Assembly: GCA_035480855.1 (NCBI GenBank) | Contig: DATIHJ010000019.1 | Span: 16,096-80,095, forward strand | Length of the DNA: 64,000 nt | DNA from: Patescibacteria group bacterium | GTDB lineage: Bacteria; Patescibacteriota; Saccharimonadia; Saccharimonadales; JANWIN01 | Direction of reading: 5' to 3' | Shown here: positions 4,152 to 51,170 of the stretch, in pieces | Numbering within the stretch: the first letter of the stretch is position 1 | Layout of the letters: each line of letters begins with the position of its first letter | Position numbers and translations under genes: made by a program | Notes under the pieces: generated by a model | Database searches by the model: none | What the model saw: only the letters and a program-made list of their open reading frames with translations | What the model was told of the DNA's origin: nothing

Positions 4152-4180
4152 TTGATTTACTACCACAAATATTATATAAT
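4152..4180 (+). promoter_or_regulatory. Near-consensus promoter placed for a leaderless transcript (TTGATT-17 nt-TATAAT-6 nt-ATG)
   Basis: TTGATT at 4152-4157, a 17-nt spacer, and TATAAT at 4175-4180. The ATG at 4187 is 6 nt downstream and there is no Shine-Dalgarno. Confidence 0.55.
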
Positions 4181-4186
4181 CTATTT

Positions 4187-4504
4187 ATGACTCCTGAATT
4201 TGACCAACCAACAAGTGCAGAACTTAGCGTTGTGCGATCTAATAGAGAGGCGCTTTTGACAGTCGGCGCTGAAGTTGCGCAACGTTTACTTGAATTTTTC
4301 CCTATAGATCCTGAGACAGGAAGAGCTGCCCAAATCCCTGTTGATACTTTTGGAAGCTATAATGCCCAAGAAACTTTAGAAGGATTAGATCTTCTAGAGG
4401 CACTGGGAGGGTCCAATGCATTGGCGGGATTGCACATTGATAGAACTCAATTGCATGATGCACGAACTGCTTTGCTTGTACTTGTAAACACAGATAATTC
4501 TTAA
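4187..4504 (+). CDS. Hypothetical protein (acidic, 105 aa)
   Basis: Called from the ORF alone. It has its own strong promoter and I recognised no motif. Confidence 0.45.
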   Translation: MTPEFDQPTSAELSVVRSNREALLTVGAEVAQRLLEFFPIDPETGRAAQIPVDTFGSYNAQETLEGLDLLEALGGSNALAGLHIDRTQLHDARTALLVLVNTDNS

Positions 4505-4587
4505 TAGCTATTTCACCTTGCGGTAAGGGGGGATTAACTATACAATTGACTTGAAATTACTAACGCTTAAAAACGAGGGTAAAATAG

Positions 4588-5628
4588 ATGAAAACACGGG
4601 TGGCCATTAATGGGTTTGGACGGATAGGCCGTAATGCCTTCAAGATTGCGTTTGACCGCTCAGACCTTGAAATAGTAGCAATTAACGATTTAACAGATAC
4701 AAAAACTCTGGCATACCTACTTAAGCATGACAGCAACTACGGGGAGTACGATAAAAAAGTCAGTTTTGATGATCAAAACATCATAGTAGCCGATAAAAAG
4801 GTTAAAGTACTGGCCGAAAAAGACCCTGCTGCGCTCCCGTGGAAAGAGATGAAAGTAGACCTGGTGATAGAATCCACTGGTCGCTTTACAGATAAAGAAG
4901 GTGCAGAACTGCACATAAAGGCTGGTGCTCAGCGTGTAGTGATATCTGGTCCTACCAAAAGTGATGGCGTAGACACCATTGTGCTTGGAGCCAACGATGA
5001 CAAGCTAGAGGGCGCCAGCAAAGTTATAAGTAATGCTAGTTGTACCACCAATTCGCTTGGTGCCGTTATGGCTATCCTAGATGCCGAGTTTGGAGTTGAG
5101 AAATCTTTGCTAACTACAGTACACAGTTATACTGCTAGTCAGGCGCTGCAAGACGCACCAAACAAGGACCTTCGCGAAGGCCGCAATGCTGCCGAAAATA
5201 TTGTACCGACCACCACTGGTGCAGCAATTGCTGTAACACTTACGCTGCCACAACTAAAAGACAAGTTTGATGGCCTTAGTATCAGGGTACCCACCCCAGT
5301 AGTTTCCATTAGCGATGTTACCGCTGTACTAAAGCGTAGTACAACAGTTGAGGAACTAAACGCTGCTTTTAAAAAAGCTTCAAAAGAGACATTCTATCAA
5401 GGTGTTCTAGGTGTTAGTGAGGAGCCTCTTGTTAGCAGCGATTACATAGGTAACAGCCACTCAGGAATTGTTGATCTACTACTAACCAAAGTAGTAGACG
5501 GTAATCTAGTAAAAGTCATGGTCTGGTACGACAATGAATGGGGTTACAGCAACCGCCTGGTAGAAGTTGTGGCCGATACTGGCAGGCTGCTTCATAAAGC
5601 AGAGGACCACAGCCAGGCACACGAGTAG
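4588..5628 (+). CDS. gap: Glyceraldehyde-3-phosphate dehydrogenase
   Basis: 346 aa. It has NGFGRIGR NAD binding, the active-site SNASCTTN motif and WYDNEWGYS. Confidence 0.95.
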   Translation: MKTRVAINGFGRIGRNAFKIAFDRSDLEIVAINDLTDTKTLAYLLKHDSNYGEYDKKVSFDDQNIIVADKKVKVLAEKDPAALPWKEMKVDLVIESTGRFTDKEGAELHIKAGAQRVVISGPTKSDGVDTIVLGANDDKLEGASKVISNASCTTNSLGAVMAILDAEFGVEKSLLTTVHSYTASQALQDAPNKDLREGRNAAENIVPTTTGAAIAVTLTLPQLKDKFDGLSIRVPTPVVSISDVTAVLKRSTTVEELNAAFKKASKETFYQGVLGVSEEPLVSSDYIGNSHSGIVDLLLTKVVDGNLVKVMVWYDNEWGYSNRLVEVVADTGRLLHKAEDHSQAHE

Positions 5629-5631
5629 CCG

Positions 5632-6084
5632 ATGAAGATTTATATTGGAGCAGACCACGGAGGCTTTAACCTGAGGGAGAGGCTCATAACATATCTGAGC
5701 GATCATAAATACGAGGTTGAGGATGAGGGTGACAAAGAGCTTAACCCAGACGACGATTACCCTCAATTTGCAGCTAAAGTAGCCGGCCAAGTACTAGCTA
5801 GCCAGGATCCTGACCCGCGCGGTATATTAATTTGCAAAGGTGCCCAGGGAATGAGCATGGCTGCAAACCGTTTTAAAGGTATTCGTGCCGCTGTTGTCTG
5901 GAATGCACACGAAGCAGAAATGACGCGTAATGATAACGACAGCAATGTACTATGCCTGACAGCCAGGCTGTTTGATAACGACCCAGCCATGGCAGAGACA
6001 ATTGTAGATTTATGGCTAACGACACCTTTTAGCCGAGCTCCTCGCCATGCCCGCCGCATACAAGAAATTGACCAACTGACTTAG
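5632..6084 (+). CDS. rpiB: Ribose-5-phosphate isomerase B
   Basis: 150 aa in the RpiB/LacAB family. The pattern is GADHGG ... ILICKGAQGMSMAANR ... NDSNVLCL. Confidence 0.88.
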   Translation: MKIYIGADHGGFNLRERLITYLSDHKYEVEDEGDKELNPDDDYPQFAAKVAGQVLASQDPDPRGILICKGAQGMSMAANRFKGIRAAVVWNAHEAEMTRNDNDSNVLCLTARLFDNDPAMAETIVDLWLTTPFSRAPRHARRIQEIDQLT

Positions 6085-10596: not shown

Positions 10597-10605
10597 TGCT
10601 AAACT
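10597..10605 (+). promoter_or_regulatory. Extended -10 box (TGCTAAACT) 10 nt upstream of the ATG at 10616
   Basis: TGn plus TAAACT. There is no Shine-Dalgarno between the box and the start codon. Confidence 0.4.
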
Positions 10606-10615
10606 TATAGGGACT

Positions 10616-11866
10616 ATGAGCAGACTCTTATCGGAGCTTTTGGGTGCGGCTGAGCCTATGTTTACAGGGACAATTCAGCAGCTGGAGCGCATTAGTGGCG
10701 ATCCAAATATTGATGTACGTTTAACAGCAGAAATTGCCACAAAGGTGCGCCAAAAAACACGCGAACTGGGTCTTGACCCAGCTGATACAACCACAAAAGA
10801 GCTGTACCATGCCCTGCAAGGGCTAGTACAAATCCAAGATAATTTTTTAGTGAAGGCGCTTGGAGGCAGTGATCCAACAGACGTATCAGATCTGTTACCA
10901 CGCATTATAAAAAAAGTAGAGTCCTTGCCACAAAGTAAGCGCTGCTGGGTACTAAAACACAGTGTAGCTAAGCGCTTACTCAAAGATATGCCGCCCAAAC
11001 AAGTCATGAAACAACTTGGACATCGTTCAATAGATTCTATGCTAAAGCGAGAGAATATAGATGAGCTTTTTGTAGCACTTCAATTAGCCCAGTCACAGGC
11101 CTGGCTTGAACGCTTCACAGCAAGCTATAAAAAATTGCAGCCCAGTGATTTTGAAATCCGGCCAATTAGTATCGTTCAGTTTTCGCCCAAACGCTGGAAA
11201 GTATTAAGTAAAGATTTTGCAATACAAAATCGCCACGCCATAACCTACGTTAAAGAGCTAGGTATTATTGCAGTACTACCAATACCAGTTGAACATTTGC
11301 GCGGCATTTGTATCACACTGTTGCCCCTTTTATTGCATGCAATGAACGAAATACGGCTATATAGTGCCTTTTTTAAACTTCAGCAAGTTAAACCAGATTT
11401 TGCAAAAATTGTTATTACGACTTTGACTTCCGAGCCAGTAGGAATGGTAAGCCTAGCAGGCCAACCGTTACATTGGCGGACCATCCAACGGTTTTATGGC
11501 AGGCAATCACCTAGTCGCCATCCAGAGGTGTTTGAACCGCATGTGCAACCAGAGGATTTGCAGTGGCAGCACGCCGAAGAGTTAATTTACCGAATTGAAC
11601 CTGCTCTAAAATTTTGGGAGGGACTAGACTATGTAGGAGCCCCAAACAGTGGACAACCAGTTTCACTAAACTTGCTTGATAATGCCATAAGTTATTGCAA
11701 TGACTTGCCTTACGGCCAACAGATGGTGACGCATTTCCAGGATAGTTTGTGGAATGAAGTTTTTATGCGCTATATGGATAACGAACCAGTTGAACAGCAA
11801 GTATTACAGCAACTAGATGCAGCTATTAACGTGCCAGAAGTAAGTACAGTGTTTGGAGAATTTTGA
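10616..11866 (+). CDS. Hypothetical protein, 416 aa, no recognisable domain
   Basis: A long uninterrupted ORF with its own promoter-like box. Its stop overlaps the start of the downstream LOG-family gene by 4 nt. Confidence 0.6.
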   Translation: MSRLLSELLGAAEPMFTGTIQQLERISGDPNIDVRLTAEIATKVRQKTRELGLDPADTTTKELYHALQGLVQIQDNFLVKALGGSDPTDVSDLLPRIIKKVESLPQSKRCWVLKHSVAKRLLKDMPPKQVMKQLGHRSIDSMLKRENIDELFVALQLAQSQAWLERFTASYKKLQPSDFEIRPISIVQFSPKRWKVLSKDFAIQNRHAITYVKELGIIAVLPIPVEHLRGICITLLPLLLHAMNEIRLYSAFFKLQQVKPDFAKIVITTLTSEPVGMVSLAGQPLHWRTIQRFYGRQSPSRHPEVFEPHVQPEDLQWQHAEELIYRIEPALKFWEGLDYVGAPNSGQPVSLNLLDNAISYCNDLPYGQQMVTHFQDSLWNEVFMRYMDNEPVEQQVLQQLDAAINVPEVSTVFGEF

Positions 11867-12471: not shown

Positions 12472-12480
12472 TGCTACAAT
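12472..12480 (+). promoter_or_regulatory. Extended -10 box (TGCTACAAT) 6 nt upstream of the uvrB ATG
   Basis: TACAAT lies at 12475-12480 and the ATG at 12487. There is no Shine-Dalgarno. Confidence 0.5.
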
Positions 12481-12486
12481 TAGTAG

Positions 12487-14451
12487 ATGACTAAGTTTAA
12501 ACTTCAGGCGGAGTATAAACCTACTGGCGATCAGCCGTCGGCTATTGCCGAATTGACTCAGGGCTTAGACGCAAAAACTAAAGAGCAGGTGCTTTTAGGC
12601 GTAACGGGTAGTGGTAAGACCTTTACCATGGCTAATCTTATCCAAAATACTGGTAAGCCCACGCTAGTATTAAGCCACAACAAAACCTTAGCTGCCCAGC
12701 TATATAGTGAGTTCAAGCATTTCTTTCCAGATAACGCCGTACATTACTTTGTTAGCTATTTTGATTACTACCAGCCAGAGGCATATATGCCCCGTACTGA
12801 TACCTATATAGAAAAAGATAGCCAAATAAACGAAGAAATTGACCGATTGCGGCACGCTGCGACAGACGCATTACTGACCAGGCGTGATGTAATAATTGTT
12901 GCCAGTGTTAGCTGTATATACGGCATTGGCTCTGTTGAGGATTACAACGATCTAGCAATTACTGTTAAGCGCGGTGAGCGACGTGTACGAGATAAGCTAT
13001 TACGTCAGCTTACAGACATACAGTACCAGCGTAACGACATAGACTTTCATCGTTCAACATTTCGTGTTCGCGGTGATGTAGTGGATGTTTACCCGGCGGG
13101 CGAGGAACTTGCATATAGGCTTGAACTCTTTGGCGAAGAAGTAGAGCGCATTACCAAAATCGATCCTTTGACCGGAGAAATCTTGGCAAAAATAGAAGAG
13201 CTTAAGATTTTCCCTAGCTCCCACTACGTAACACCACAGGACAAGCTTAAACTGGCCCTCGGCCAGATTCAGTCAGAGCTTGGGGAGAGGTTGGCTTATT
13301 TCAAAAAGAACGGGCAGCTTCTGGAAGCACAGAGACTGGAGCAGCGCACAAAGTTTGACCTGGAAATGCTAGAGGAAACGGGCTTTGTAAAAGGCATAGA
13401 AAATTATAGTCGTTACCTGACCAACCGTGAACCTGGTGAACAACCAGCCACACTTCTAGATTATTTCCCAGACGATTACCTTATGTTTGTAGATGAAAGT
13501 CACATGACAATTCCCCAAGTCCGTGGCATGTACAACGGTGATCGAGCCCGCAAGGAGGTACTGGTGGACTATGGCTTCCGTTTGCCAAGCGCCCTGGACA
13601 ATCGCCCACTAACCTTTATTGAGTTCGAAAAGCATATGAATCAAGTTGTCTATGTCAGCGCCACACCAGCAGAGTTTGAGCTATCTCGTAGCCCCAAACC
13701 TGCCCAACAAGTCATTCGTCCCACAGGACTTCTGGATCCAGTTATCGAAGTCCGACCTATTGATGGCCAAATAGACGATCTGATTGCCGAAATCCGAGAA
13801 ACCATAGCAAAGCGCCGTCGAGTACTGGTAACAACGCTTACCAAGCGTATGGCAGAAGATCTAACTGACTATCTCAAGGAAATTAACATCAAAGTTACCT
13901 ATCTTCATAGTGATGTTGAAACGCTGGAACGAACAGACATATTGAGAGACTTACGCCTGGGGGTATACGACGTTGTAGTGGGTATTAACTTACTGCGTGA
14001 AGGCTTAGATTTACCAGAAGTAAGCTTAGTAACCATTTTAGATGCAGACAAAGAAGGATTTTTGCGAAGTGAGCAGGCACTTATCCAGACAATTGGACGG
14101 GCTGCAAGGCACATTGAGGGTCGTGTGATCATGTATGCAGACTCAATCACAAAAAGCATGAAACGTGCAATTGACGAGACAAACCGCCGCCGAAAAATAC
14201 AGGAAGACTACAACAAAAAGCACGGCATAACACCGCAAGGTATTAGCAAAACTATAGAAAAGGGTATGCGCCCTGACTTACCTGAGGAAGCCAAGCGCGC
14301 CAAACTGGACCTAAAGAAAATCCCCAAGGATGAATACGGTAACCTAATAAAAGCCTTAACGAGTCAGATGGATCTGGCAGCTGCAAACCTTCAGTTTGAA
14401 ACCGCTGCAGAGCTGCGCGATATAATTGCCGATATAAAAGCGAAGCTATAA
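12487..14451 (+). CDS. uvrB: Excinuclease ABC subunit B
   Basis: 654 aa with GVTGSGKT Walker A, DESH, helicase motifs and a C-terminal UVR motif (FETAAELRD). Confidence 0.96.
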
Positions 14452-14945: not shown

Positions 14946-14954
14946 TGCTATACT
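14946..14954 (+). promoter_or_regulatory. Extended -10 box (TGCTATACT) 6 nt upstream of the gatC ATG
   Basis: TATACT lies at 14949-14954 and the ATG at 14961. There is no Shine-Dalgarno. Confidence 0.5.
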
Positions 14955-14960
14955 TATAGA

Positions 14961-15251
14961 ATGGCAACATTACCTAGGGATGATGTATTAAAATTGGCTC
15001 AACTCGCCCGTCTGGACCTTTCTGCGGCAGAGATTGTGCAGTTCCAGCAGGAACTAGGAGACATTCTTGAATATGTGCAACAACTTCAAAAAGTTGATAC
15101 TAAGAATCTAGAACCTACATACCAGGTGACAGGGCTAAAAAGTGTTATGCGCGAAGACAAAATAATTGATTATGGTGCTAGCCCCAAGGATTTACTTAAA
15201 AACGTACCAACCACAGAAGACGGTCAAATAAAAGTAAAGAGAGTTTTATAA
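14961..15251 (+). CDS. gatC: Asp/Glu-tRNA amidotransferase subunit C
   Basis: 96 aa. The typical GatC N-terminus is present (VLKLAQLARLDLSAAE), and it lies immediately upstream of gatA. Confidence 0.9.
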   Translation: MATLPRDDVLKLAQLARLDLSAAEIVQFQQELGDILEYVQQLQKVDTKNLEPTYQVTGLKSVMREDKIIDYGASPKDLLKNVPTTEDGQIKVKRVL

Positions 15252-18512: not shown

Positions 18513-18521
18513 TGGTACAAT
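18513..18521 (+). promoter_or_regulatory. Extended -10 box (TGGTACAAT) 6 nt upstream of the galU ATG
   Basis: TACAAT lies at 18516-18521 and the ATG at 18528. The 12-mer AATCTATTTATG is identical to the one at 4178-4189. Confidence 0.5.
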
Positions 18522-18527
18522 CTATTT

Positions 18528-19421
18528 ATGCAACCAAAACGAGTACGAAAAGCAGTAATAGCAGCCGCTGGCTTTGGTACTCGCATGCTTCCGCAGACCA
18601 AAGCTATGCCCAAGGAAATGTTGCCCCTTGTAGATAAACCTATTATTCAATATATCGTAGAAGATCTGGTGGCAGCCGGCATAGAAGACATCATAATTGT
18701 CACCGGTTATCACAAACGCTCAATTGAAGATCATTTTGACGCCATCAGTGCAGATTTGCGCGCAAACTTGGAGCAGGGTCACAAAGAAAAATTGCTTGAG
18801 GAAACCAACAAAATTTCAGAGCTAGCTAATTTTGCATATATCCGCCAAAAGGGACCATACGGTAGTGCCACGCCAATCATGAATGTAGCACCGCTAATTG
18901 GTGACGAACCATTTATATATACTTATGCCGACGATTTAATAACAGCCAACCCAAATAGATTCAAACAGATGATTGATCTTTACAATGAGCTTGGGGGCCC
19001 AATTGTGCCTTGTATAAAGGCTACACAAGACGAAGATTATGAACGTTATGGTATTTTGGACGGTGAAAGTATTCGTGATGGAGTCATAAAAATGAGCCAT
19101 TTGGTAGAGAAGCCCGGGCGTGCGAACGCTCCATCGGATTTGGCTAGTGTTAGCGGCTATCTCCTCACTCCAGATGTTTTTGACTACATTGAGCAAGGTA
19201 TAACCACATTAAAACCTGGTCAAGAATTTTACTTAACAACATATGTACTGGAGCCTATGATTGCTGCTGGCAAGTCTTTGTATGGCTGCACGCTAAAAGA
19301 CAGTGATTATTACGATACAGGCACAAAGCTAGGCTATCTCAAAACTGTCGTAGCCTATGCTTTGAAGCACCCAGATGTACAGGAGCAATTCAAAGACTAT
19401 CTTCATAAGCTAAACGGCTAA
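18528..19421 (+). CDS. galU: UTP-glucose-1-phosphate uridylyltransferase
   Basis: 297 aa with AAGFGTRMLPQTKAMPKEMLPLVDKP, the GalU signature. Confidence 0.9.
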   Translation: MQPKRVRKAVIAAAGFGTRMLPQTKAMPKEMLPLVDKPIIQYIVEDLVAAGIEDIIIVTGYHKRSIEDHFDAISADLRANLEQGHKEKLLEETNKISELANFAYIRQKGPYGSATPIMNVAPLIGDEPFIYTYADDLITANPNRFKQMIDLYNELGGPIVPCIKATQDEDYERYGILDGESIRDGVIKMSHLVEKPGRANAPSDLASVSGYLLTPDVFDYIEQGITTLKPGQEFYLTTYVLEPMIAAGKSLYGCTLKDSDYYDTGTKLGYLKTVVAYALKHPDVQEQFKDYLHKLNG

Positions 19422-19458
19422 GCTTGCCGCTACTAGGCACGTCGTATACACTGGAAGT

Positions 19459-19731
19459 ATGGATACAGCAGCAGCGGCACTTCTTATCGTTGTTTCTACT
19501 ACGCTTAGTGTCTTTCTAGTAGTCTGCATAATAGCAGTTATAAAAATTAACAAAATTTTAAGTGACGTGCACCACATTACCGAAAAGGCTTCACAAATTA
19601 CAGATAAAGCTGGGGCAGTCAGTGAATTCTTTCAGAAAAATAGCGTTCCTACTGCCATAATAAAAATAATATCTAACGTAGCAAATTCTTTCAAAGAGGG
19701 TAAGAAATCCAATAAGGAGGAAGAACTATGA
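19459..19731 (+). CDS. Small membrane-anchored protein (DUF948-like)
   Basis: 90 aa with an N-terminal TM helix and then a helical region. It overlaps the downstream YtxH gene by 4 nt. A DUF948/YtxH pairing is common in Gram-positive stress loci. Confidence 0.5.
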   Translation: MDTAAAALLIVVSTTLSVFLVVCIIAVIKINKILSDVHHITEKASQITDKAGAVSEFFQKNSVPTAIIKIISNVANSFKEGKKSNKEEEL

Positions 19732-30880: not shown

Positions 30881-30887
30881 TCCATTT

Positions 30888-33096: not shown

Positions 33097-33102
33097 AACT
33101 AT

Positions 33103-35636: not shown

Positions 35637-35643
35637 CTATACT
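35635..35643 (+). promoter_or_regulatory. Extended -10 box (TGCTATACT) 7 nt upstream of the ATG at 35651
   Basis: TATACT lies at 35638-35643. There is no Shine-Dalgarno. Confidence 0.45.
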
Positions 35644-35650
35644 GCTTGGT

Positions 35651-36637
35651 ATGCAGTCTAAACCCAAGCGCAAGGGGTTAATCACACTTCTGGTTTTACT
35701 GGCCCTGTTAGTTTTTGTTTGGCTAAAGCATAACGCTATTTACGATTGGTTTCAGCTTCGTAACTACTCCGCTCCCGCCCAAGTTGTTCAACTGGCTACC
35801 GACACAACAATGACCTCGCAGACAACTCATCTGTTTTACGTCAACCATCCTGCAATCGAAAGTAGCAGTGATTTTAACGCGAGCTGCCCTAATAACGGCG
35901 GTGAGCAGACCATTATTTTAGGATGTTACCATAATCCGCAGCGAGGAATATTCCTATTTTCGGTCAGCGACCCTCAGCTTAATGGTGTGATGCAGGTCAC
36001 TGCTGCACATGAGACGCTGCACGCCATTTATGACCGTCTCAGCACTAAAGAACGCAACTACGTCGACGGGCTGCTACAAGACTATTACCAACACGATCTG
36101 CATGATCAACGACTACTTGATACTATTGCTGCCTACAAAAAGAGCGAACCCAAAGATGTTGTCAACGAAATGCACTCGGTTTTTGGCACGGAGGTTTCAA
36201 ATCTGCCGCCGGCTCTTGAGACTTACTATGCTCAGTACTTTACCAATAGGGCCAAGATAGTAAGCTATTCACAGCAATACCAGGCAGCATTTTCTAGCCG
36301 AAAGGCCCAAGCGGATAATCTGTTGCAACAGATTAAGGCGCTCGAGCAGCAACTAAGCACACTTAAAGCTCAGATCGATAGTCAAGAATCAGATCTAAGG
36401 GCTAAACGGCAGGCTATTGATAGCGAGCGAGGCAATATTACTGACGTACAAGCATTCAATGCCCAAGTGGACGATTACAATAGCCAGGTAACCCTATACC
36501 AGGCTAAGGTAGCCACCTATAACCAGTTAGTAAATCAGCACAATCAATTACGCGACCAATATCAAGCCATTGCAGTCGAGGAAACCCAACTCTTTAAAGA
36601 ACTAGACAGCCAAAGCTCCACCGTGTCCTCCCAATAA
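35651..36637 (+). CDS. Membrane-anchored protein with an HExxH motif and a Q-rich coiled-coil tail
   Basis: 328 aa. The layout is an N-terminal TM (LITLLVLLALLVFVWL), a Cys pair (SCPNNGG...GCYH), HETLH at 36008-36022 and a C-terminal ~110 aa Q/A/L-rich heptad-like region. Confidence 0.55.
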   Translation: MQSKPKRKGLITLLVLLALLVFVWLKHNAIYDWFQLRNYSAPAQVVQLATDTTMTSQTTHLFYVNHPAIESSSDFNASCPNNGGEQTIILGCYHNPQRGIFLFSVSDPQLNGVMQVTAAHETLHAIYDRLSTKERNYVDGLLQDYYQHDLHDQRLLDTIAAYKKSEPKDVVNEMHSVFGTEVSNLPPALETYYAQYFTNRAKIVSYSQQYQAAFSSRKAQADNLLQQIKALEQQLSTLKAQIDSQESDLRAKRQAIDSERGNITDVQAFNAQVDDYNSQVTLYQAKVATYNQLVNQHNQLRDQYQAIAVEETQLFKELDSQSSTVSSQ

Positions 36638-36703
36638 TTTAGCAATAATCTGTAGGTAGGGTTTGGGTTGGGGGAATTGTGAGTGTAAAGGTAAAATGAA
36701 GCT

Positions 36704-38050
36704 ATGGCTAAGAAAAACAGTGTGCAGTTTGTGTGTAGTAATTGCGGGGCGCTTAGTAGTACATGGTCCGGGCGCTGCCACGTATGCGGCGAGTGGAATA
36801 CGCTGCAGGAACAGATCAGTATAGACCCAAAGGCAATTAATCAGGGAGCAGTCCTAAAACCTCAGAGCGTTGCCAAACTTGCCAAACACGACCAACTAAC
36901 CCGCCTTAAAACAGGTGTGGATGAGGTAGACAATGTGCTGGGAGGAGGTTTTGTGGCAGGTAGTGTAAGCCTGATCGCAGGTGAGCCCGGCATAGGCAAA
37001 AGTACACTCCTCTTACAGCTGGCCAATGCTGTTGCAGCAAAAGAGACCGTTCTGTACATAAGCGGTGAGGAATCTGCTCATCAGATAGGTTTGCGCGCTC
37101 AACGTCTGGGCGCAAGCCAACCCAAATTACAGCTTGCTACTAGCAACACGGCTGACGATGTAGCAACCACCATCGCTCAGGGACAATACAAGCTAGTTAT
37201 TATTGACTCAATTCAGACGATTACTGTAAGTGGGGTTAGCTCTGCCGCCGGCACAGTTAGCCAGATATCTGGTAGCACTCAACTCCTGACCGCAGCGGCT
37301 AAGCAGACTAATACAGCACTAATCTTGGTTGGGCATGTCACCAAAGAAGGCTCCATTGCCGGGCCAAAAGTGTTGGAACATCTAGTAGATGTTGTATTGC
37401 AGCTAGAGGGTGACCGTTATGGTGGATTCAAACTACTTAGAAGTATAAAAAATCGTTATGGCTCTACCAATGAGGCTGGCATATTTGAAATGGTAGACAA
37501 TGGCTTGCAGCCAGTCACAAACCCGTCTGCATCGTTACTAGCCGAGAGACAGGTAAGTGACGGCTCTGTAGTTCTGGCCACAATGGAAGGATCGAGGCCC
37601 CTGCTTGTAGAAGTCCAAGCGCTAGTCAACAAAACTAGCTATGGCTACCCCAAGCGTGCTGCCAGCGGAATTGACCTGAACCGGGTAAACTTATTAGTGG
37701 CAATGCTTGAGCGGCGCACCAAACTGAATCTGTCAGACAAAGATATCTATCTAAACATCGTCGGCGGCATACGGATCACAGAACCTGCAGCTGACCTAGC
37801 AGTTTGCATGGCTATAGCCTCTGCTGCAAAAGGAATGCAACTACGCAAAAATGCTGTTGTATTTGGAGAGGTTGGACTTTCCGGAGAAGTACGCCACGTG
37901 CCGTTTGTAGATAAGCGAGTAGCTGAGGCAAAAAAACTAGGCTTTGTAGGTGCCATTGGCCCAGTTATAAGGACAGGTAAAAAGCCCGCAAGCCTATTTG
38001 GCGTACGTGATATACGAACAGCTCTTAACGAATTTCTCGAAAAAGATTAA
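36704..38050 (+). CDS. radA: DNA repair protein RadA
   Basis: 448 aa with an N-terminal C4 zinc finger (CSNCG...CHVCGEW), Walker A GEPGIGKST, KNRYG (the KNRFG motif) and a Lon-like C-terminal domain. Confidence 0.94.
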   Translation: MAKKNSVQFVCSNCGALSSTWSGRCHVCGEWNTLQEQISIDPKAINQGAVLKPQSVAKLAKHDQLTRLKTGVDEVDNVLGGGFVAGSVSLIAGEPGIGKSTLLLQLANAVAAKETVLYISGEESAHQIGLRAQRLGASQPKLQLATSNTADDVATTIAQGQYKLVIIDSIQTITVSGVSSAAGTVSQISGSTQLLTAAAKQTNTALILVGHVTKEGSIAGPKVLEHLVDVVLQLEGDRYGGFKLLRSIKNRYGSTNEAGIFEMVDNGLQPVTNPSASLLAERQVSDGSVVLATMEGSRPLLVEVQALVNKTSYGYPKRAASGIDLNRVNLLVAMLERRTKLNLSDKDIYLNIVGGIRITEPAADLAVCMAIASAAKGMQLRKNAVVFGEVGLSGEVRHVPFVDKRVAEAKKLGFVGAIGPVIRTGKKPASLFGVRDIRTALNEFLEKD

Positions 38051-41000: not shown

Positions 41001-41172
41001 CTTTTGGTAGTCCAGCTTTACGTTCTGCCTTACGGCGTTCTTTGTCGTCCTTACTGCCAACCCATTTTTGCAACAGATTACGATGTACTTTAATAACGTT
41101 CCCACTCTTAGTAGTAAAATAATTCTTGCCAACTTTGCGCCGGCCACCACCTGAACTTTTTTTGGCACTCAT
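38047..41172 (-). CDS. Class A penicillin-binding protein (PBP1A-type) with long terminal extensions
   Basis: 1041 aa with a basic cytoplasmic tail and TM. Glycosyltransferase motifs are EDKDFYKHGG, GGSTITQQ and RKVKE. Transpeptidase motifs are SSFKP, SRN and KTGT. About 250 aa of S/T/N/G-rich extension follows at the C-terminus. Confidence 0.9.
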   Translation of the reverse strand: MSAKKSSGGGRRKVGKNYFTTKSGNVIKVHRNLLQKWVGSKDDKERRKAERKAGLPKARLKRFLYHFQPKRMYKYWISRDGGIMALKILGIGIAAGFVILVGLFAYFRKDLPNITDVSGSNIGGSISYYDKTGNNLLWQDYDAVKRIPVSDPNISKYVKQATVAVEDKDFYKHGGFDVRGIIRAGVADSFGHGGTQGGSTITQQLVKLTQNWTGNRTVSRKVKELILAVELEREYSKDQILTGYLNVAPYGNIEYGVEAASNDYFHKSAKDLTLDEAAFLAAIPKSPSYYSPYGSIYKQDPATANKDLVERQHYILDLMVQQHMVTKAQADAAKKVDVVAKIQPQQNKYAGIKAPYFVLAAKSELDNKYGSSTVNRGGWKVITTLDMGLQSTAEQLVATNLHNVSRYGADEEAIVGEDVQTGQIVSLVGGTDFSNADHGQNNYAAGILVPPGSSFKPYDYTTLIDNNNNVGAGSVMYDQVGPIPGYPCTNKALPKNGGNCLQDYDFLNPGPITLRYALGGSRNIPAVKAMLSSVPNDTSSGHVASINKVISTASAMMDNPYNSGSTYNCYANTALTQTTQCYGASAIGDGAFLHLDDHVNGLSTLARLGQAIPRTYILKITDSANKNVYAFQQPKAKQVIKADSAYIVDNIASDPNASYLPGSCTATTCTPLSHGGYKFQRDNGWNFAVKTGTTNDGFDGLMTSWSTRYAVVSWVGNHTRRVNLNTTMETLTEPLTRGWMEAAHANIKPVNWVQPSTVKTLPAFVVHNHIHYGDIEPSPATDLFPGWYNAPSKVTNASIDKVSNKLATSCTPNLAKQQTTGGDANSFSVDIFFGSGALSSGANTSANDDVHQCSDSPPSVASFYVDGQDATAGNSISCNDSCNITTAVTAGTHPFSDPQYPQFPGTVNLIVNGQVVQTKQVSDSPSNVSFTYSGSGSVTMAIQVIDSVLYDSTSAQATVNLAGAAQPLSNLVATINGINTKFTWSGGTGPFNVYKTGNSTPYASCTNVSGSTCTVSSAVAPHNTPVVVKDSTGAAATANVN

Positions 41173-41318
41173 GTGTCTATTCGAAAACTCCTTAGAGGTA
41201 CAGATATTATAGCAAATTTACTCATTCGACAACGATTGATATTTGGCATAATCATGGCCGCATATGTAAGTCTAATCCTGTATACTGAGAAAAAGGTAAT
41301 GAATATAGAGAAGCACAA

Positions 41319-42519: not shown

Positions 42520-42528
42520 TGCTACACT
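42520..42528 (+). promoter_or_regulatory. Extended -10 box (TGCTACACT) 8 nt upstream of the ATG at 42537
   Basis: TACACT lies at 42523-42528. There is no Shine-Dalgarno. Confidence 0.35.
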
Positions 42529-42536
42529 AGGCTGCA

Positions 42537-43298
42537 ATGGCAAAAACACATAAAAAAGCCGACCAATATAATGATCCATCACATAACTATCTACATTACT
42601 GGGATGGCCGTGATTACGAGAACGCTGCCGAGCAGATAGCTATAAAGAGACTTCTGAAGGGCAAACACTTTGGACATGCCGTGGATGTGGGTGGTGGTTA
42701 TGGTCGTTTGTGCCTGTTACTAGAAAATTACGCAGACAAAGTCACTTTGGCCGAGCCGTCTCAGCAGCAGCTTGATATTGCCAAAGATTTCCTCAAAGAT
42801 CATCCAGAGATTGACCGCAAACTAACACAAGCAGACGACCTTTCATTCAATGATGGTTCGGTGGACCTTCTTACTATGATAAGAGTTATGCATCACTTGC
42901 CGGATCCAAGCACTGAGTTTAGGGAAATATACCGCGTCTTGGCCCAAGATGGAACATTTATATTAGAGGTCGCTAACTATGCTCATGCCCGTAACCGCCT
43001 CAAGCACATCTTGAAGGCTAAAAAAATGCCAATTGATCCAGTAGATATTCGTTCTGAGCAAAACAAGAAAGAAAGTGACATAGCGTTTGTAAATCACAAT
43101 CCAAAAACAGTTATCAAACAGTTGGCACATGCAGGATTTAAGGTCAAACGTACACTGTCTGTATCTAATCTGCGCTCGCCAGCCCTCAAAAAGATTATCC
43201 CCATGGGTGGCATGCTGGCAGTAGAACGTGTCTTGCAGCCAACTCTTTCCAAAACCTACTTTGGACCCAGCGTCTTCTTACTGATCCAAAAAGCCTAG
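42537..43298 (+). CDS. Class I SAM-dependent methyltransferase
   Basis: 253 aa with motif I VDVGGGYGR plus post-I and motif II spacing typical of Methyltransf_11/25 enzymes. Confidence 0.75.
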   Translation: MAKTHKKADQYNDPSHNYLHYWDGRDYENAAEQIAIKRLLKGKHFGHAVDVGGGYGRLCLLLENYADKVTLAEPSQQQLDIAKDFLKDHPEIDRKLTQADDLSFNDGSVDLLTMIRVMHHLPDPSTEFREIYRVLAQDGTFILEVANYAHARNRLKHILKAKKMPIDPVDIRSEQNKKESDIAFVNHNPKTVIKQLAHAGFKVKRTLSVSNLRSPALKKIIPMGGMLAVERVLQPTLSKTYFGPSVFLLIQKA

Positions 43299-43321
43299 CC
43301 ACATCATCTATACTAGGTGAT

Positions 43322-45361
43322 GTGAAACTAGAGAGTCCGTTGACTGATATTAAGGGGGTTGGGGAGACACTTGCCAAAAAGTATGCAGTGCTTGGCATCC
43401 ATACCGTGGCTGATCTAATTGATTATTACCCGCGCCGTTATGATGATTATTCCCAAGTGCAACAGATTGCAGATATTAAGCCAGGAGTGATTACACTCAG
43501 GGTATCTATCAAGCAAGCAAAAGGCCGTTATGTTCGCCGTGGCATGCACATAACAGAGGCAGTAGCGAGTGATAGTACAGGCAGTGTTCGTTTAATATGG
43601 TTTAACCAACCTTACAGAGCTGCTGCCATTAAGCCTGACGCACTGTACTACGTTTCCGGGCAATTTGAGCTAAGCCACCAGAAGTTTTCTGTTATGAACC
43701 CTTCTATGGAACTAGTTAGTGAGTTTCCTGTTAATACTGCACGGATTGTTCCTATTTACAGGGAAATTAAAGGTAGCAAGTCATTAGAAATCCGTCGTAT
43801 GCTGCGTGAGGTCGCACCACTTATTCGCTCCCTATCAGAAACTCTCCCTACCTGGCTTATAGCCCAGCAAAAACTAATGAGCCGTAGCGAAGCTCTTATG
43901 GCCATGCATTTTCCAGAAAGTTCAAAACAACTGGAACAGGCACAAAGAAGGCTGGGTTTTGAAGAAGTCTTCGGGCTGAGCCTTGCTAGTCTTCTGAACA
44001 AAAACGAACTTGCCCAGGAAGTAGCACTAGCTATTCCGTTTAAGCAACAGCTAGCGCGTGACTTTGTGGATCATTTGCCGTTTAAACTTACTGACGCCCA
44101 AAGGAAAGTAACCTGGCGTATTTATCAGGACCTAGAGAAGTCTCGTCCCATGAACAGGCTAATCGAGGGTGATGTTGGCTCAGGTAAGACGGTAGTAGCC
44201 ACTATGGCGGCGCTTATGGCCATGGAGCAAGGCTTTCAGGTGGCATTTATGGCACCAACCGAGCTTTTAGCGCGCCAACACGCGGATACTGTTCACAAGC
44301 TTTTGGAGCCACTAGGCTACGCTGGGCAAGTAGGTATGCTTATTGGCAGCCTAAAGCCAGCCCAAAAGGCTGAAGCTCACAAACGTGTCAAGAAGGGGGA
44401 TATACGCTTAATCATTGGCACGCACGCGCTTATTGCAGAAAAAGTGGATATGCACAAACTAGGACTGGTAATCATAGACGAGCAGCACCGTTTTGGTGTG
44501 GAGCAGCGCAAAAAACTCCAAGCCAAGGCCGGCCATGCATTGCATGTAATCAGCATGACCGCTACACCTATTCCTCGTAGTTTGGCATTGACTCTTTATG
44601 GAGAGCTAGACATTTCTGTAATAGATACTAAGCCTCTTGGCCGTAAGCCCATTATTACTAAAATTGTCTCACCCAACTCGCGCGCACAGTTATACGCAAA
44701 GATTGATAAGGAGTTAAATGCCGGTCGCCAACTATTTGTCGTTACACCACTAATAACCGAATCTGAAGTTAGCAAAGCCAGCAAGTCTGCAGAAAAAGTC
44801 TATGAAGAGCTCAGCAAAGGTCCGTTTAAGCATAGAAAAGTAGGACTATTGCATGGCAAGATGAAATCAGAAGATAAAGCAAAGGTAATGGGCGATTTTG
44901 TAGCCCATAAACTAGATGTTTTGGTAGCGACCACGGTTATAGAAGTGGGTGTAGACGTACCAAACGCTACAGTCATGTTAATTGAGGATGCCGAACGGTT
45001 TGGGCTAGCACAAATACACCAGCTACGAGGACGGGTGGGCAGGAGCGAACACCAAGGCTATTGCTATCTTATGCTTAGCGATTCCAAGGCTCCCAGTCGA
45101 CGTTTGCGGGCGGTGGAAGGTTCATCCGACGGTTTTGAGCTAGCTGAGCTAGACCTTGACATTCGCGGACCTGGAGCCATTTATGGCACCATGCAGCACG
45201 GCCAGCTTGACTTGAGAGTAGCTAAATTAACAGATGTAAAATTAATTTCCGCAGCTCGACAGGCAGCCCAAGAGTTTATAGACACGGGTGCAAATCTGCT
45301 ACAATACAAAGAGCTACAAGCGCGCGTTAAAAATCTTCGCGCTGTTACAAACCTAAACTAA
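43322..45361 (+). CDS. recG: ATP-dependent DNA helicase RecG
   Basis: 679 aa with a GTG start. It has a wedge/OB N-terminal domain, GDVGSGKT, DEQHRFG, and QLRGRVGR. Confidence 0.93.
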   Translation: MKLESPLTDIKGVGETLAKKYAVLGIHTVADLIDYYPRRYDDYSQVQQIADIKPGVITLRVSIKQAKGRYVRRGMHITEAVASDSTGSVRLIWFNQPYRAAAIKPDALYYVSGQFELSHQKFSVMNPSMELVSEFPVNTARIVPIYREIKGSKSLEIRRMLREVAPLIRSLSETLPTWLIAQQKLMSRSEALMAMHFPESSKQLEQAQRRLGFEEVFGLSLASLLNKNELAQEVALAIPFKQQLARDFVDHLPFKLTDAQRKVTWRIYQDLEKSRPMNRLIEGDVGSGKTVVATMAALMAMEQGFQVAFMAPTELLARQHADTVHKLLEPLGYAGQVGMLIGSLKPAQKAEAHKRVKKGDIRLIIGTHALIAEKVDMHKLGLVIIDEQHRFGVEQRKKLQAKAGHALHVISMTATPIPRSLALTLYGELDISVIDTKPLGRKPIITKIVSPNSRAQLYAKIDKELNAGRQLFVVTPLITESEVSKASKSAEKVYEELSKGPFKHRKVGLLHGKMKSEDKAKVMGDFVAHKLDVLVATTVIEVGVDVPNATVMLIEDAERFGLAQIHQLRGRVGRSEHQGYCYLMLSDSKAPSRRLRAVEGSSDGFELAELDLDIRGPGAIYGTMQHGQLDLRVAKLTDVKLISAARQAAQEFIDTGANLLQYKELQARVKNLRAVTNLN

Positions 45362-46729: not shown

Positions 46730-46814
46730 GCGGATGTGGTGGAATTGGTAGACACGCTAGCCTTAGGAGCTAGTGCCGCAAGGCGTGAAGGTTCAAGTCC
46801 TTTCATCCGCACCA
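46730..46814 (+). tRNA. tRNA-Leu (anticodon UAG), class II with a long variable arm and encoded CCA
   Basis: Manual cloverleaf. The acceptor is GCGGATG/CATCCGC, the anticodon stem is CTAGC/GCTAG with loop CTTAGGA, the T-arm is GAAGG-TTCAAGT-CCTTT, the discriminator is A, and CCA follows. Confidence 0.9.
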
Positions 46815-46821: not shown

Positions 46822-46844
46822 GCGACTCCTTTTGGGGTCGTTTA
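46822..46844. terminator. Hairpin between tRNA-Leu and the convergent membrane-protein gene (probable terminator)
   Basis: CGACTCC / GGGGTCG forms a 7-bp stem (one G-U) with loop TTTT, followed by TTTA. Confidence 0.5.
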
Positions 46845-49423: not shown

Positions 49424-49440
49424 AATATTCAGCGCCTATC

Positions 49441-49449
49441 TGTTATAGT
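49441..49449 (+). promoter_or_regulatory. Extended -10 box (TGTTATAGT) 8 nt upstream of the tig ATG
   Basis: TATAGT lies at 49444-49449 and the ATG at 49458. There is no Shine-Dalgarno. Confidence 0.4.
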
Positions 49450-49457
49450 TACTTTTT

Positions 49458-50750
49458 ATGCAACTCATAAAGACATATCTTAGTGATACTCGCATCAAGC
49501 TGGACATTTCTGCCGACCAGAAACTCATAGATGGCATAAAAACTGTTGTACTGCGCCATTTGGCAAAAGACCACGTTAAACTACCCGGCTTCCGCAGTGG
49601 TAAAGCTCCGCTTTCAATGGTTGAAAAGAGCGTAGATCAGGAGCTACTACATAGTGAATTCTTAGACGAAGCCGTAAATCGCCTATATGTGCAGGCAATG
49701 CAGGCTGAAAAGCTACGACCTGTCGAGCAGCCCAAAATTACCCTCAAAAAGTTCGTGCCTTTTACACAGCTAGAGTTTGAAGCCGAGGTAGAGGTTATAG
49801 GTGAAATAAAGCTGCCGAATTATAAGACCATGAAGCAGCAACCAGCTGCCGTAAAGGTAGAAGCCAAAGATGTCACAGAAGTACTATCAAGCCTGCAACA
49901 GCGTATGGCAGAACGAAGCGGCGTACAAAGGGCATCTAAAAAGGGTGATGAGGTACTAATTGACTTTAGTGGTAAGGATAGCAAGGGTCAGCGAGTAAAA
50001 GGTGCTGACGGCAAGGACTATCCTCTCATTTTAGGTAGCAACACATTTATACCAGGCTTTGAAGAGCATTTGTTTGGCTTAAAACACGGTGATGATACTA
50101 AATTTGATGTAACATTTCCTAAAGATTATGGCGTTGCGGCATTGCAGAGTAAAAAAGTAACTTTCAGCGTTAGTGTTAAACAAGTCCAAGAGGTTGTGGC
50201 ACCAAAACTAGATGACTCATTTGCAGCCAAGTCCGGTCCATTTAAGACACTAACAGAACTAAAAACAGACATAAAAAAGCAGCTTACAATTGAGCGCCAA
50301 CAGCAAGCTGACCGTGACTTTGAAAACCAGCTGGTCAGAAATATTGCAGCTAAATCTAGCGTAGCAATACCGGAAGTATTGATCGACGAGGAAGTAAAGC
50401 GGGCAGAAGAAGGTGAGCGTCAAAACTTGGCCTATCGTGGCCAAACCTGGCAGGAGCACCTAGACGAAGAAGGAATAACAGAAGAAGAACACCGCAGACG
50501 AAACCGTGACAGTGCCCAGGAAAGCGTTAAGGCTGGGCTGGTACTGAGTGAAATATCTGAACAGGAAGGCATAAAAGTTACTCCAGAGGAGTTCGAGATT
50601 CGCCTCCAGCTTCTAAAGGGGCAATATACTGATAATGCTATGCAAGCAGAACTTGACACTCCCAATGGTCGTCGTGATATTGAAAATAGTCTATTAACAG
50701 AAAAAACATTAGCCAAGCTTACAGTATATGCCAAGAAGCATACTACTTGA
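49458..50750 (+). CDS. tig: Trigger factor
   Basis: 430 aa with an N-terminal ribosome-binding signature region (GFRSGKAP), a central FKBP-type PPIase segment and a C-terminal arm domain. Confidence 0.88.
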   Translation: MQLIKTYLSDTRIKLDISADQKLIDGIKTVVLRHLAKDHVKLPGFRSGKAPLSMVEKSVDQELLHSEFLDEAVNRLYVQAMQAEKLRPVEQPKITLKKFVPFTQLEFEAEVEVIGEIKLPNYKTMKQQPAAVKVEAKDVTEVLSSLQQRMAERSGVQRASKKGDEVLIDFSGKDSKGQRVKGADGKDYPLILGSNTFIPGFEEHLFGLKHGDDTKFDVTFPKDYGVAALQSKKVTFSVSVKQVQEVVAPKLDDSFAAKSGPFKTLTELKTDIKKQLTIERQQQADRDFENQLVRNIAAKSSVAIPEVLIDEEVKRAEEGERQNLAYRGQTWQEHLDEEGITEEEHRRRNRDSAQESVKAGLVLSEISEQEGIKVTPEEFEIRLQLLKGQYTDNAMQAELDTPNGRRDIENSLLTEKTLAKLTVYAKKHTT

Positions 50751-50783
50751 CCAAAGTTGATATTAGTGTTAATATAATTTTAT

Positions 50784-51170
50784 ATGAGCAAGACAGGTAA
50801 ACTATTAAAGCATATTTACTACGGCCAGTTTAAAAATGGCGCGGAAGATCTTCATGTTGATAATGCCAACGAATTATCAGATCGTGAAGGGACTAAACGC
50901 CTTGTTGGAAGTACAGCACTGTATTTAACGCTTATAACTGCAGAATTGGTTAGGAATAAGCCAATAGGGTTGGCAATCGTTACCGGAATAGGCGGTATAC
51001 TTTTACGCCGACAGTATCAAAATACACAAACACAGCACATAGATTTAATGGAATCTGAAACCACAATAAAAACTGAAAGTGATGATTATAGAGACGTTCA
51101 GTCTATACCCATTACAGATACTTCAGCACAGGCGGATGCAGTTAGCGCAAATTACCTAAGTAATCTTTAA
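50784..51170 (+). CDS. Hypothetical protein (128 aa) with a central hydrophobic segment
   Basis: Called from the ORF. TATAAT at 50773-50778 lies 5 nt upstream of the ATG. It looks AT-rich relative to its neighbours by eye. Confidence 0.4.
   Translation: MSKTGKLLKHIYYGQFKNGAEDLHVDNANELSDREGTKRLVGSTALYLTLITAELVRNKPIGLAIVTGIGGILLRRQYQNTQTQHIDLMESETTIKTESDDYRDVQSIPITDTSAQADAVSANYLSNL

Follow-up and report, generated by a model that had tools for sequence, protein, structure and literature searches.

The DNA analysed here, referred to as the window, is a stretch of 64,000 nucleotides (nt) from a Patescibacteria group bacterium of the order Saccharimonadales (assembly GCA_035480855.1, contig DATIHJ010000019.1, positions 16,096 to 80,095 of the forward strand). 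Its G+C content is 45%, and its genes are tightly packed and mostly located on the plus strand. The element in question is a -10-like hexamer, TAnnnT, frequently extended to TGnTAnnnT, which lies a fixed and very short distance before many start codons. An earlier note on the window had listed 15 such motifs on the plus strand and two on the minus strand as a sign of widespread leaderless messenger RNAs (mRNAs), and all of them, together with their start codons, were recovered exactly where they had been placed. The observation was confirmed, with clpC taken out of the list (see below) and two candidates that had been missed (32235 and 10616) added to it. The modules are given below in window coordinates, with the gap counted from the hexamer to the start codon.

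4152-4189, plus strand: 105-residue hypothetical protein; TTGATT (4152-4157), 17 bp, TATAAT (4175-4180), 6 nt, ATG at 4187
10597-10618, plus strand: 416-residue hypothetical protein, additional candidate; TGCTAAACT, 10 nt, ATG at 10616
12472-12489, plus strand: uvrB; TGCTACAAT, 6 nt, ATG at 12487
14946-14963, plus strand: gatC; TGCTATACT, 6 nt, ATG at 14961
18513-18530, plus strand: galU; TGGTACAAT, 6 nt, ATG at 18528
19424-19461, plus strand: 90-residue hypothetical membrane-like protein; TTGCCG, 17 bp, TACACT (19447-19452), 6 nt, ATG at 19459
25397-25414, minus strand: TrmH/RlmB-family methyltransferase; TGATAGACT (25414-25406), 6 nt, GTG at 25399
25451-25468, plus strand: PilB/GspE-type ATPase; TGCTTAAAT, 6 nt, ATG at 25466
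27073-27113, plus strand: rplS (L19); TTGACC, 17 bp, TAGTAT (27096-27101), 9 nt, ATG at 27111
27682-27706, plus strand: rplS terminator hairpin; 10-bp stem and T run, adjoining the rnhB box
27682-27726, plus strand: rnhB; TGATATCAT (27709-27717), two bases past the hairpin, 6 nt, GTG at 27724
30878-30896, minus strand: pepN-like aminopeptidase; TGCTAGAAT (30896-30888), 7 nt, ATG at 30880
32198-32237, plus strand: 261-residue hypothetical protein, additional candidate; TTGCTA, 17 bp, TATAAT, 8 nt, ATG at 32235
35635-35653, plus strand: 328-residue hypothetical protein; TGCTATACT, 7 nt, ATG at 35651
36668-36706, plus strand: radA; TTGGGG, 18 bp, TAAAAT (36692-36697), 6 nt, ATG at 36704
42520-42539, plus strand: class I methyltransferase; TGCTACACT 2 nt past the tyrS stop codon, 8 nt, ATG at 42537
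43309-43324, plus strand: recG; TATACT, 7 nt, GTG at 43322, with just 23 nt of intergenic DNA before the start
49441-49460, plus strand: tig (trigger factor); TGTTATAGT, 8 nt, ATG at 49458
50747-50786, plus strand: 128-residue hypothetical protein; TTGACC, 17 bp, TGT-TAATAT (50767-50775), 8 nt, ATG at 50784

With the hexamers as first chosen, the gap was 6 nt in 10 of the 17 originally listed cases and 5-9 nt in all 17, and the TG extension was written for 11 of the 17. The hexamers agreed with TAnnnT except for TTAAAT at 25454 (pilB) and GATAAT at 33091 (clpC), and the absence of a Shine-Dalgarno (SD) sequence was borne out for all the candidates except clpC, with GAAGTGGG. The call for pilB is less certain because in TTAAAT the key A at -11 is replaced by T; with this non-canonical hexamer a leaderless pilB is plausible but weaker as a prediction. 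For the gene at 50784, the TATAAT first chosen (50773) overlaps the TAATAT box listed here and has a gap of 5 nt. The gene at 10616 would have a leader of about 3-4 nt, and its arrangement, a 10-nt gap after an extended -10, is found likewise in the related loci L081, L082 and L083. The gene names were correct where they could be checked, both for UvrB, GatC, GalU, the PilB/GspE-type ATPase, L19 and RNase HII and for the ClpC/ClpB-type ATPase, RadA, RecG, trigger factor, the TrmH/RlmB-family methyltransferase and the PepN-like aminopeptidase. The gene at 4187 has no SD, no orthologue among the loci examined and no family match, and for the gene at 19459 no support was obtained by orthologue and family searches (loci and profile scans). 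The 12-mer AATCTATTTATG shared by the modules at 4187 and 18528, to which the note had drawn attention, was conserved in no relative; the spacer CTATTT occurred in just these two window genes among 150 modules with a 6-nt gap, the other spacers being almost all unique, and the identity is taken as a coincidence because the spacers are highly variable and the galU orthologues differ.

For the window counts, the regions upstream of 48 gene starts were compared with 5000 shuffles of the same regions. TAnnnT was present at a gap of 5-9 nt before 18 of the 48 starts (shuffles 6.45 +/- 2.29, maximum 16) and TGnTAnnnT before 10 (shuffles 0.40 +/- 0.62, maximum 4), and in the other five-position windows upstream there were 5-10 genes with TAnnnT and 0-4 with TGnTAnnnT. 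On both strands of the window 151 TGnTAnnnT sites were counted, and 10 of them lay 6-8 nt before a start codon against 0.17 expected (Poisson P 5e-15, or 2e-10 with the intergenic rate tripled).

Relatives were collected as 80 genome loci found with the ClpC protein (77-84% identity), including complete genomes of 0.9-1.45 Mb; nearly all of them are titled Candidatus Saccharibacteria or Saccharimonadales. Genes in their 1.46 Mb were called by a deliberately naive rule (longest open reading frame (ORF) or first ATG), which together with the window gave about 1050-1130 genes. TAnnnT had its last base at -7 in 148-166 of some 1050 genes, as compared with about 28 per neighbouring position (about 5-fold, with shoulders at -8 to -10), and that of TGnTAnnnT in 70-73 genes, as compared with about 4 (about 17-fold). 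The SD peak (GGAG, GAGG, AGGA or GGTG) was located at -6 to -8. The positional alignment proposed in the earlier note was thus carried out, and a sharp -10 peak at -12 to -7, separate from the SD peak, was obtained. The peak was also seen at 6-7 nt in a test free of gene calls, in which the distance from TGnTAnnnT to any ATG or GTG opening a 100-codon ORF was recorded and control motifs gave no peak. As a negative control, 712 genes on 75 non-Saccharibacterial contigs of similar G+C content (47%), taken from a metagenome scan with UvrB, were run through the same pipeline and showed a strong SD peak and no -10 peak. The same scan yielded five close relatives, four of them of usable length, the other 75 loci forming the control, and there were not enough high-G+C loci in it for a positive control.

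About 35% of the genes in the related loci and the window carry a proximal box and 25% an SD. Both together were found in 25 genes against about 100 expected (Fisher odds ratio 0.12, P 2e-31), which upholds the idea of bimodal initiation, with mutually exclusive -10 and SD classes. The leadered examples that had been set against the boxes (nusA, clpP, PBP1A, rpoB, ppa and gap) were named correctly and do contain SD-like cores. The frequency of proximal boxes exceeded the local background in 54 of the 61 loci with at least 10 genes (median 38%). An origin of the boxes by chance in A/T-rich intergenic DNA has in its favour that TAnnnT is a frequent word (1.8% of the window positions), and single cases such as those at 45365 or 24866 may be of this kind; for the set as a whole it is refuted by the shuffled and positional controls, by the control motifs and genomes without a peak and by the conservation across species described below.

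The composition of the boxes was examined with a position weight matrix. In the class with a 6-nt gap, T reaches 60% at -15 and G 62% at -14, followed by a hexamer TA(t)A(a/c)T, and the triplets most commonly found before the hexamer are TGC, TGT and TGA; aligned as a class, the boxes give an extended -10 consensus with merely a faint -35. A TTGnnn element at 17-18 bp accompanies 5 of the 6 window boxes without TG and 2 of the 12 with TG (Fisher P 0.013), and in the related loci the TTG peak at a 17-bp spacer is restricted to boxes without TG, though it comes largely from the rplS family and one other family. The same TGnTAnnnT motif is present 29-38 nt before six SD-carrying starts of the window, namely those of a flavoprotein (2175), PBP1A, clpP, the gene at 52036, rpsL and thioredoxin reductase, and the same element therefore appears to serve leadered genes at the normal distance.

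These features support the view that the boxes are sigma-70-type promoter elements, read as DNA by RNA polymerase rather than as an RNA-level signal by the ribosome. If TAnnnT were instead a translation signal of the non-SD type in leadered mRNAs, for example a site for a short bS1 as in the group B genomes discussed below, its occupation of the SD position and its exclusion of the SD would be explained, and it is true that bS1 is unusually short in the candidate phyla radiation (CPR) and that some CPR lack the anti-SD (PMC9297842). A ribosomal signal of this kind is nevertheless very unlikely: it does not account for a TG one base upstream, for a TTG -35 at 17-18 bp found preferentially where TG is missing, for the identical motif 29-38 nt upstream of SD-led genes, or for the rarity of the motif before tightly coupled internal genes.

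Conservation was followed in orthologues of the individual genes. Relatives recovered for the uvrB, gatC and galU region were few, and in them these arrangements are found again: uvrB is preceded by TGCTACAAT at 6 nt in L081, TGTTATAAT at 6 nt in L082 and TAAACT at 8 nt in L083, and by an SD-like sequence in L084; gatC by TATAAT, TAAAAT or TATACT at 7-10 nt from the ATG; and galU by TGCTACAAT at 8 nt in L081 and TATAAT at 6 nt in L082. A -10 at 5-9 nt was found in 24 of 28 orthologues of the trmH-family gene (mostly TATAGT), and a canonical TATACT or TATAAT at 6-9 nt in 21 of 30 orthologues of pilB, with TGCTTAAATA kept in five. The pepN orthologues have the box in 55 of 65 cases and the TG extension in 44, those of the gene at 35651 the box in 30 of 42 and an SD in none, those of the methyltransferase at 42537 the box in 19 of 34 with TG in 15, and those of recG the box in 40 of 54, mostly TATACT at 6-7 nt, with an SD in one. 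For nusA, the proximal -10 is found in 0 of 66 orthologues, and 65 of the 66 are SD-led. In rnhB and the genes at 42537 and 35651 the N-terminus shifts by up to 10 codons among species, and the box shifts with the ATG.

The genes rplS and rnhB are adjacent. The -10 of rplS is kept in 38 of 53 orthologues, with a gap of 9 nt in 35, and TTGnnn 17 bp upstream is also kept; across about 35 species the order is TTGnnn, 17 bp, TAnnnT (TAGAAT, TAAGGT and variants), 9 nt and ATG. The rplS leader would be about 2-3 nt; a purine that is conserved 7 nt beyond the box points to 3 nt. The distance between the rplS terminator and the rnhB start is about 17 nt, and since the terminator abuts the box there is no room for another promoter or a leader. 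Among the rnhB orthologues a -10 at 5-9 nt is present in 41 of 56, with TG in 32, and several repeat the succession hairpin, TTTT and TGnTAnnnT. An A/T-rich hairpin with a T run likewise stands directly upstream of the module at 35635-35653.

Side observations were made at two of these genes. In the divergent spacer of the trmH-family gene and pilB (66 nt, 25400-25465), two proximal -10 boxes are placed back-to-back, and a GCTTATGC motif directly 5' of the pilB box is conserved in the window and in the orthologous spacers (about 20 loci); it may be the site of a regulator. The L19 of the window (27111-27662) has 183 residues, and the bacterial profile (114 positions) covers residues 4-111; as the match ends at residue 111, the protein has a C-terminal extension of about 70 residues, which agrees with a report of enlarged bL19 in CPR (PMC9297842).

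The assignment of the start codons bears on all the distances above. Ordinary promoters could have been mistaken for start-proximal ones if the annotated ATGs lay in 5' untranslated regions (UTRs) and the true starts further downstream. The calls are ORF-based, the Tig profile begins at residue 19, which makes the tig start less certain, and the genes at 4187, 19459, 35651 and 50784 have no family support. The profiles of UvrB (from residue 3), GatC, GalU, L19, RNase HII, RadA and RecG align from residues 1-6, and those seven starts are therefore not mis-called. Moreover, the aligned orthologues share the ATG, with conservation at the protein level beginning there, ATGs inside UTRs would not give a sharp in-frame spacing of 6 nt, and the control genomes show no such peak. 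Misplaced starts are therefore an extremely unlikely explanation.

The start codons themselves differ between the classes. Anchored by orthologues, the box-proximal starts were 330 ATG, 8 GTG and 1 TTG (97% ATG), and the SD-led starts 188 ATG, 13 GTG and 8 TTG. Within radA alone, box-proximal starts were ATG in 34 of 34 cases, as compared with 18 ATG, 7 TTG and 3 GTG among the SD-led ones (P 1e-4). Leaderless mRNAs have a near-absolute need for a 5'-terminal AUG (or GUG), and the ATG preference of the box-proximal starts would fit this requirement.

Bacterial promoters generally direct transcription to start some 7 nt downstream of the -10 hexamer. From the position, composition, conservation and SD exclusivity of the boxes, which are observed, we infer the transcription start and the mode of translation: with a probability of roughly 0.8, the set as a whole represents sigma-70-type promoters placed at start codons, from which leaderless mRNAs without an SD would be made. 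RNA polymerase would begin at the A of the start codon or no more than about 3 nt away from it, that is, on the A of the ATG in the 6-nt class, 1-3 nt upstream in the 7-9 nt classes and 4 nt upstream at 10616. The resulting mRNAs would have neither a 5' leader nor an SD, and their 5'-terminal AUG would be recognised by the ribosome and the initiator tRNA without SD pairing. Direct recognition of a 5'-terminal AUG is established in Escherichia coli (lambda cI), mycobacteria and Deinococcus. In this Saccharibacterium about a third of the genes would be expressed in the leaderless mode; for most of the others, an SD in a short leader (about 17-30 nt) or coupling inside operons would be expected.

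Several points weigh against a leaderless reading of the boxes. Three of the window candidates start with GTG, and gaps of 8-10 nt imply predicted leaders of 1-4 nt instead of none. A generic -35/-10 consensus scan of the window found 28, 35 and 30 sites against 37.9, 30.5 and 33.4 in shuffles, and was thus unenriched; the signal resides in the position of the box and in the TG extension. T is found at -1 in 55% of the box-proximal class and in 48% and 45% of the other classes; since the frequencies are similar, it is uninformative, and a pyrimidine at -1 was dropped as a mark of transcription start on A, not being class-specific. The share of proximal boxes per 20-kb locus ranges from 0 to 0.8 and is near background in L081, L083 and L084, and the extent of the trait accordingly varies among relatives, from none to most of the genes of a 20-kb locus. 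Since the loci cover orthologous regions, the orthologue statistics represent about 16 gene families sampled over many species and not a set of independent genes; they speak to conservation more than to frequency across the genome, and it is the window that contributes independent genes. For the cultivated relative Nanosynbacter lyticus TM7x, a 2025 promoter survey inferred 188 starts from RNA-seq coverage, which is imprecise, and describes an unusually variable distance between the -10 and the start (PMC12641261).

The spacing of the genes belongs to the same side of the balance. Between same-strand neighbours the intergenic gap of the box-proximal class has a median of 35 nt, and one in ten is shorter than 14 nt. 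A terminator-like hairpin is present upstream of about 10% of the box-proximal genes that follow a same-strand gene, and the gaps of the roughly 90% with no recognisable terminator are given as 14-63 nt; with few upstream terminators and short gaps, read-through transcripts with internal ATGs are therefore likely as well. The earlier description of these genes as first in their operons stands for those with divergent neighbours and for rnhB behind its terminator, where first-in-unit status is clear; the others are only putative first genes, many of them being separated by 14-35 nt, without a terminator, from the same-strand gene ahead of them. Upstream terminators were dropped as a proof of operon-first status, being present in about 10% of the same-strand cases.

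Read-through transcripts would thus probably coexist with box-driven ones. A stronger version holds that the promoters are real but secondary, that polycistronic mRNA is dominant and that the SD-less starts are reached by re-initiation or 70S scanning. The short gaps and the scarcity of hairpins just given speak for it, as does the position of the modules at 42520-42539 and 43309-43324, which begin 2-11 nt past the upstream stop codon. Such dominance of read-through is unlikely, however. The distance between box and ATG is fixed over tens of species and tracks the ATG, which would not be selected for if the promoters contributed little; in the 135 cases where a box-proximal gene follows a divergent neighbour (median gap 101 nt), read-through is impossible; the rnhB module directly follows a strong terminator; and the avoidance of TTG points to 5'-terminal initiation.

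The genes used for comparison are leadered, and so, almost certainly, is clpC:

33018-33105, plus strand: clpC upstream region; CIRCE-like repeat, TTGACA-18-TATTAT, leader of about 40 nt, GAAGTGGG, ATG at 33103
30914-31009, plus strand: nusA; near-consensus TTGACA-17-TAGAAT, hairpin and T run at 30955-30979, AAGGAG, ATG at 31007
51198-51252, plus strand: clpP; TTGACA-17-TATTAT (ending at 51226), leader of about 17 nt with AGGAG, ATG at 51250
41170-41214, minus strand: PBP1A; TGCTATAAT (41214-41206), 33 nt with AAGGAG, ATG at 41172

The claim of a leaderless clpC was not sustained. Its TGGGATAAT (33088; hexamer GATAAT) overlaps the SD-like GAAGTGGG and amounts to an SD plus spacer, and GAAGTGGG aligns with the SD-like AAGGTGG or GTGGG of most clpC orthologues. 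Further upstream, an inverted repeat resembling the controlling inverted repeat of chaperone expression (CIRCE), TAGCACTC-TTGACATGC-GAGTGCCA with an N9 loop (33018-33042), contains the stop codon of the preceding gene, and its loop holds the -35 of a near-consensus TTGACA-18-TATTAT promoter (33026-33055) that ends 47 nt before the ATG. The gene at 33103 is most likely leadered and would be transcribed from this CIRCE-embedded promoter. Seven relatives (L037, L045, L052, L060, L065, L071 and L073) have a canonical CIRCE, TTAGCACTC-N9-GAGTGCTAA, before clpC, upstream of position 10001 of these loci; the loop provides TTGAC as the -35, and 6-9 nt separate the end of the corresponding -10 from the clpC ATG. 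An operator wrapped in this manner around the -35 would be meaningless at the RNA level, which is a further point against a ribosomal signal. The CIRCE-type repeat here precedes clpC rather than groEL or dnaK, and its position suggests an HrcA-type heat-shock control of clpC in Saccharimonadales.

Other observations concern the leaders as such. In many loci with a leadered clpC, a conserved inverted repeat TAGCGA-N11-13-TCGCTA lies between promoter and SD, 20-45 nt upstream of the gene (L002, L005, L006, L017, L018, L020, L030, L033, L040, L046, L054 and others); it is distinct from CIRCE and may be an operator or a leader hairpin. The SD-like cores of clpC orthologues are often GGTGG or GTGGG instead of GGAGG. 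The nusA hairpin is G+C-rich with a T5 run, is located inside the 5' UTR ahead of AAGGAG and looks like a transcription attenuator. In the related loci, a hairpin with a T run inside the leader, about 37 nt before the start, was recorded for 19% of the SD-led genes with divergent neighbours, and a terminator-like hairpin for 2% of the box-proximal genes with divergent neighbours, which hints that leader hairpins or attenuators could be common in the leadered class.

The mode of initiation changes within gene families. Among the radA orthologues, 39 are of the leaderless type and 33 are SD-led, with the same kind of TGCTACACT box in both; in the former the ATG comes 6-9 nt after the box, and in the latter about 14 nt and a GAGGAG precede the start codon. 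For clpC, 48 of the 79 species have an SD-led gene and 14 a box-proximal one. It was also observed that radA, clpC and dnaE alternate between the leaderless type and the SD-led type among species with 70-85% protein identity, and that in radA the difference looks as if about 17-20 nt with GAGGAG had been inserted ahead of the start, downstream of a TGCTACACT box that is itself unchanged.

A much broader proposal can be built on these data. In Saccharibacteria, and perhaps in other CPR, a cassette of about 15 nt, TGnTAnnnT-N6-ATG, might replace the -35, the 5' UTR and the ribosome-binding site for at least one third of the genes; it might give nearly every gene its own promoter, even in spacers of 15-35 nt, and flip between the two modes by gain or loss of an SD segment of about 17-20 nt (radA, clpC and dnaE). 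The box might then be a dual DNA and RNA signal, an initiation cue on read-through transcripts being proposed because most of the cassettes have no upstream terminator. In this general form the proposal is speculative and rather doubtful.

A few results concern the surroundings and the samples. Scans of the 64-kb window with Rfam and ARAGORN returned a single tRNA-Leu (46730-46814) only, with no leader or riboswitch behind any candidate; a terminator-like hairpin lies 3' of this tRNA (46822-46841). Of those window proteins that were scanned, none was recognised as a sigma factor. Nine of the loci (L005, L008, L019, L020, L021, L036, L071, L073 and L076) encode a ClpC 79-82% identical to that of the window; their GenBank titles name Limnocylindria, Burkholderiaceae, Chlamydiae, Nevskiaceae, Bacillota, Parcubacteria or Verrucomicrobiia, and the nine are probably mis-binned or mislabelled Saccharimonadales contigs.

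In the full-text literature searched, no paper was found to treat leaderless transcription or translation in Saccharibacteria, TM7, Patescibacteria or CPR, citations in reference lists apart, the supplementary genome tables of GeneMarkS-2, in which a silent group C entry is possible, having been outside the search. A preprint on the TM7x transcriptome does not mention promoters or start sites. The loss of the anti-SD has been described for a Parcubacteria subgroup and not for Saccharibacteria, along with the short bS1 in CPR, in a study that contains nothing on leaderless initiation (PMC9297842). The mechanism is thus an established one that is apparently undescribed for the phylum Saccharibacteria, and because leaderless expression is well known the finding widens its scope and adds no new principle. 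A deep-branching, genome-reduced phylum would join the leaderless-rich lineages (Actinobacteria and Deinococcus-Thermus), and single genes that switch their initiation mode within a clade would make the gain and loss of leaders directly comparable. For gene calling in metagenome-assembled genomes of Saccharibacteria and CPR, a leaderless-aware model would be needed, as an SD-only model would misplace about one third of the starts. Saccharibacteria have recently become genetically tractable (PMC10633639); the 15-nt TGnTAnnnT-N6-ATG cassette would offer a compact native expression signal, and SD-based cassettes may not suit every context.

Among known systems, extended -10 promoters (TGnTATAAT) are used by sigma-70/sigma-A, as in galP1 of E. 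coli, and are common in Gram-positive bacteria and mycobacteria; the housekeeping sigma factor recognises them through its region 3.0. They share with the boxes described here the TG one base before the hexamer and the weak or absent -35 where TG is present, with a TTG -35 at 17-18 bp where it is not. Unlike in ordinary promoters of this type, the box here is placed relative to the start codon, so that the transcript would begin at the AUG. The lambda cI mRNA from P_RM and other leaderless mRNAs of E. coli are initiated by 70S ribosomes and initiator tRNA at the 5'-terminal AUG; as in those, the start codon is here the predicted 5' end, with ATG preferred and TTG avoided. In E. coli they are rare exceptions, whereas here they would form a major class, as predicted from the sequence.

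Two further systems resemble the window in part. In archaeal group D genomes a promoter element likewise stands at a fixed distance from the start codon without an SD, but it is a TATA box with a B recognition element (BRE) about 26 nt upstream that belongs to another polymerase machinery (PMC6028130), whereas the element here is a bacterial -10 at about -10. Bacteroidota of group B and the Parcubacteria without anti-SD also have many genes without an SD; the non-SD motif of group B, however, is also present before operon-internal genes and cannot be a promoter (PMC6028130), whereas the box here is a putative promoter element and SD use persists.

The nearest parallel is group C of GeneMarkS-2, in which a Pribnow box lies 6-8 nt from the starts in 25-50% of the transcription units and the rest have an SD (PMC6028130). 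Group C is described as common among Actinobacteria (90%) and Deinococcus-Thermus (97%) but seldom met in Proteobacteria and Firmicutes, its examples being Mycobacterium tuberculosis, M. smegmatis, Corynebacterium glutamicum, Streptomyces and D. deserti (PMC6028130). In leaderless genes of this type the primary transcript starts at the start codon, with a 5' UTR of 0-5 nt, and the 6-9 nt spacing of the boxes here matches the distance usual between a -10 and its start. The likeness consists in a fixed, short -10 distance in a large minority of the genes, in SD-led initiation of the others and in a pattern that can be detected from sequence alone. The model species of group C have proof from differential RNA sequencing (dRNA-seq), whereas the Saccharibacterial case is known from its sequence. 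It differs from group C in lying in Saccharibacteria/CPR, outside the clades named in the text of that study (PMC6028130), in the low G+C content (45%) and very compact genome, with whole promoter-start modules fitted into spacers of 15-35 nt, and in the very frequent TGn extension of its boxes.

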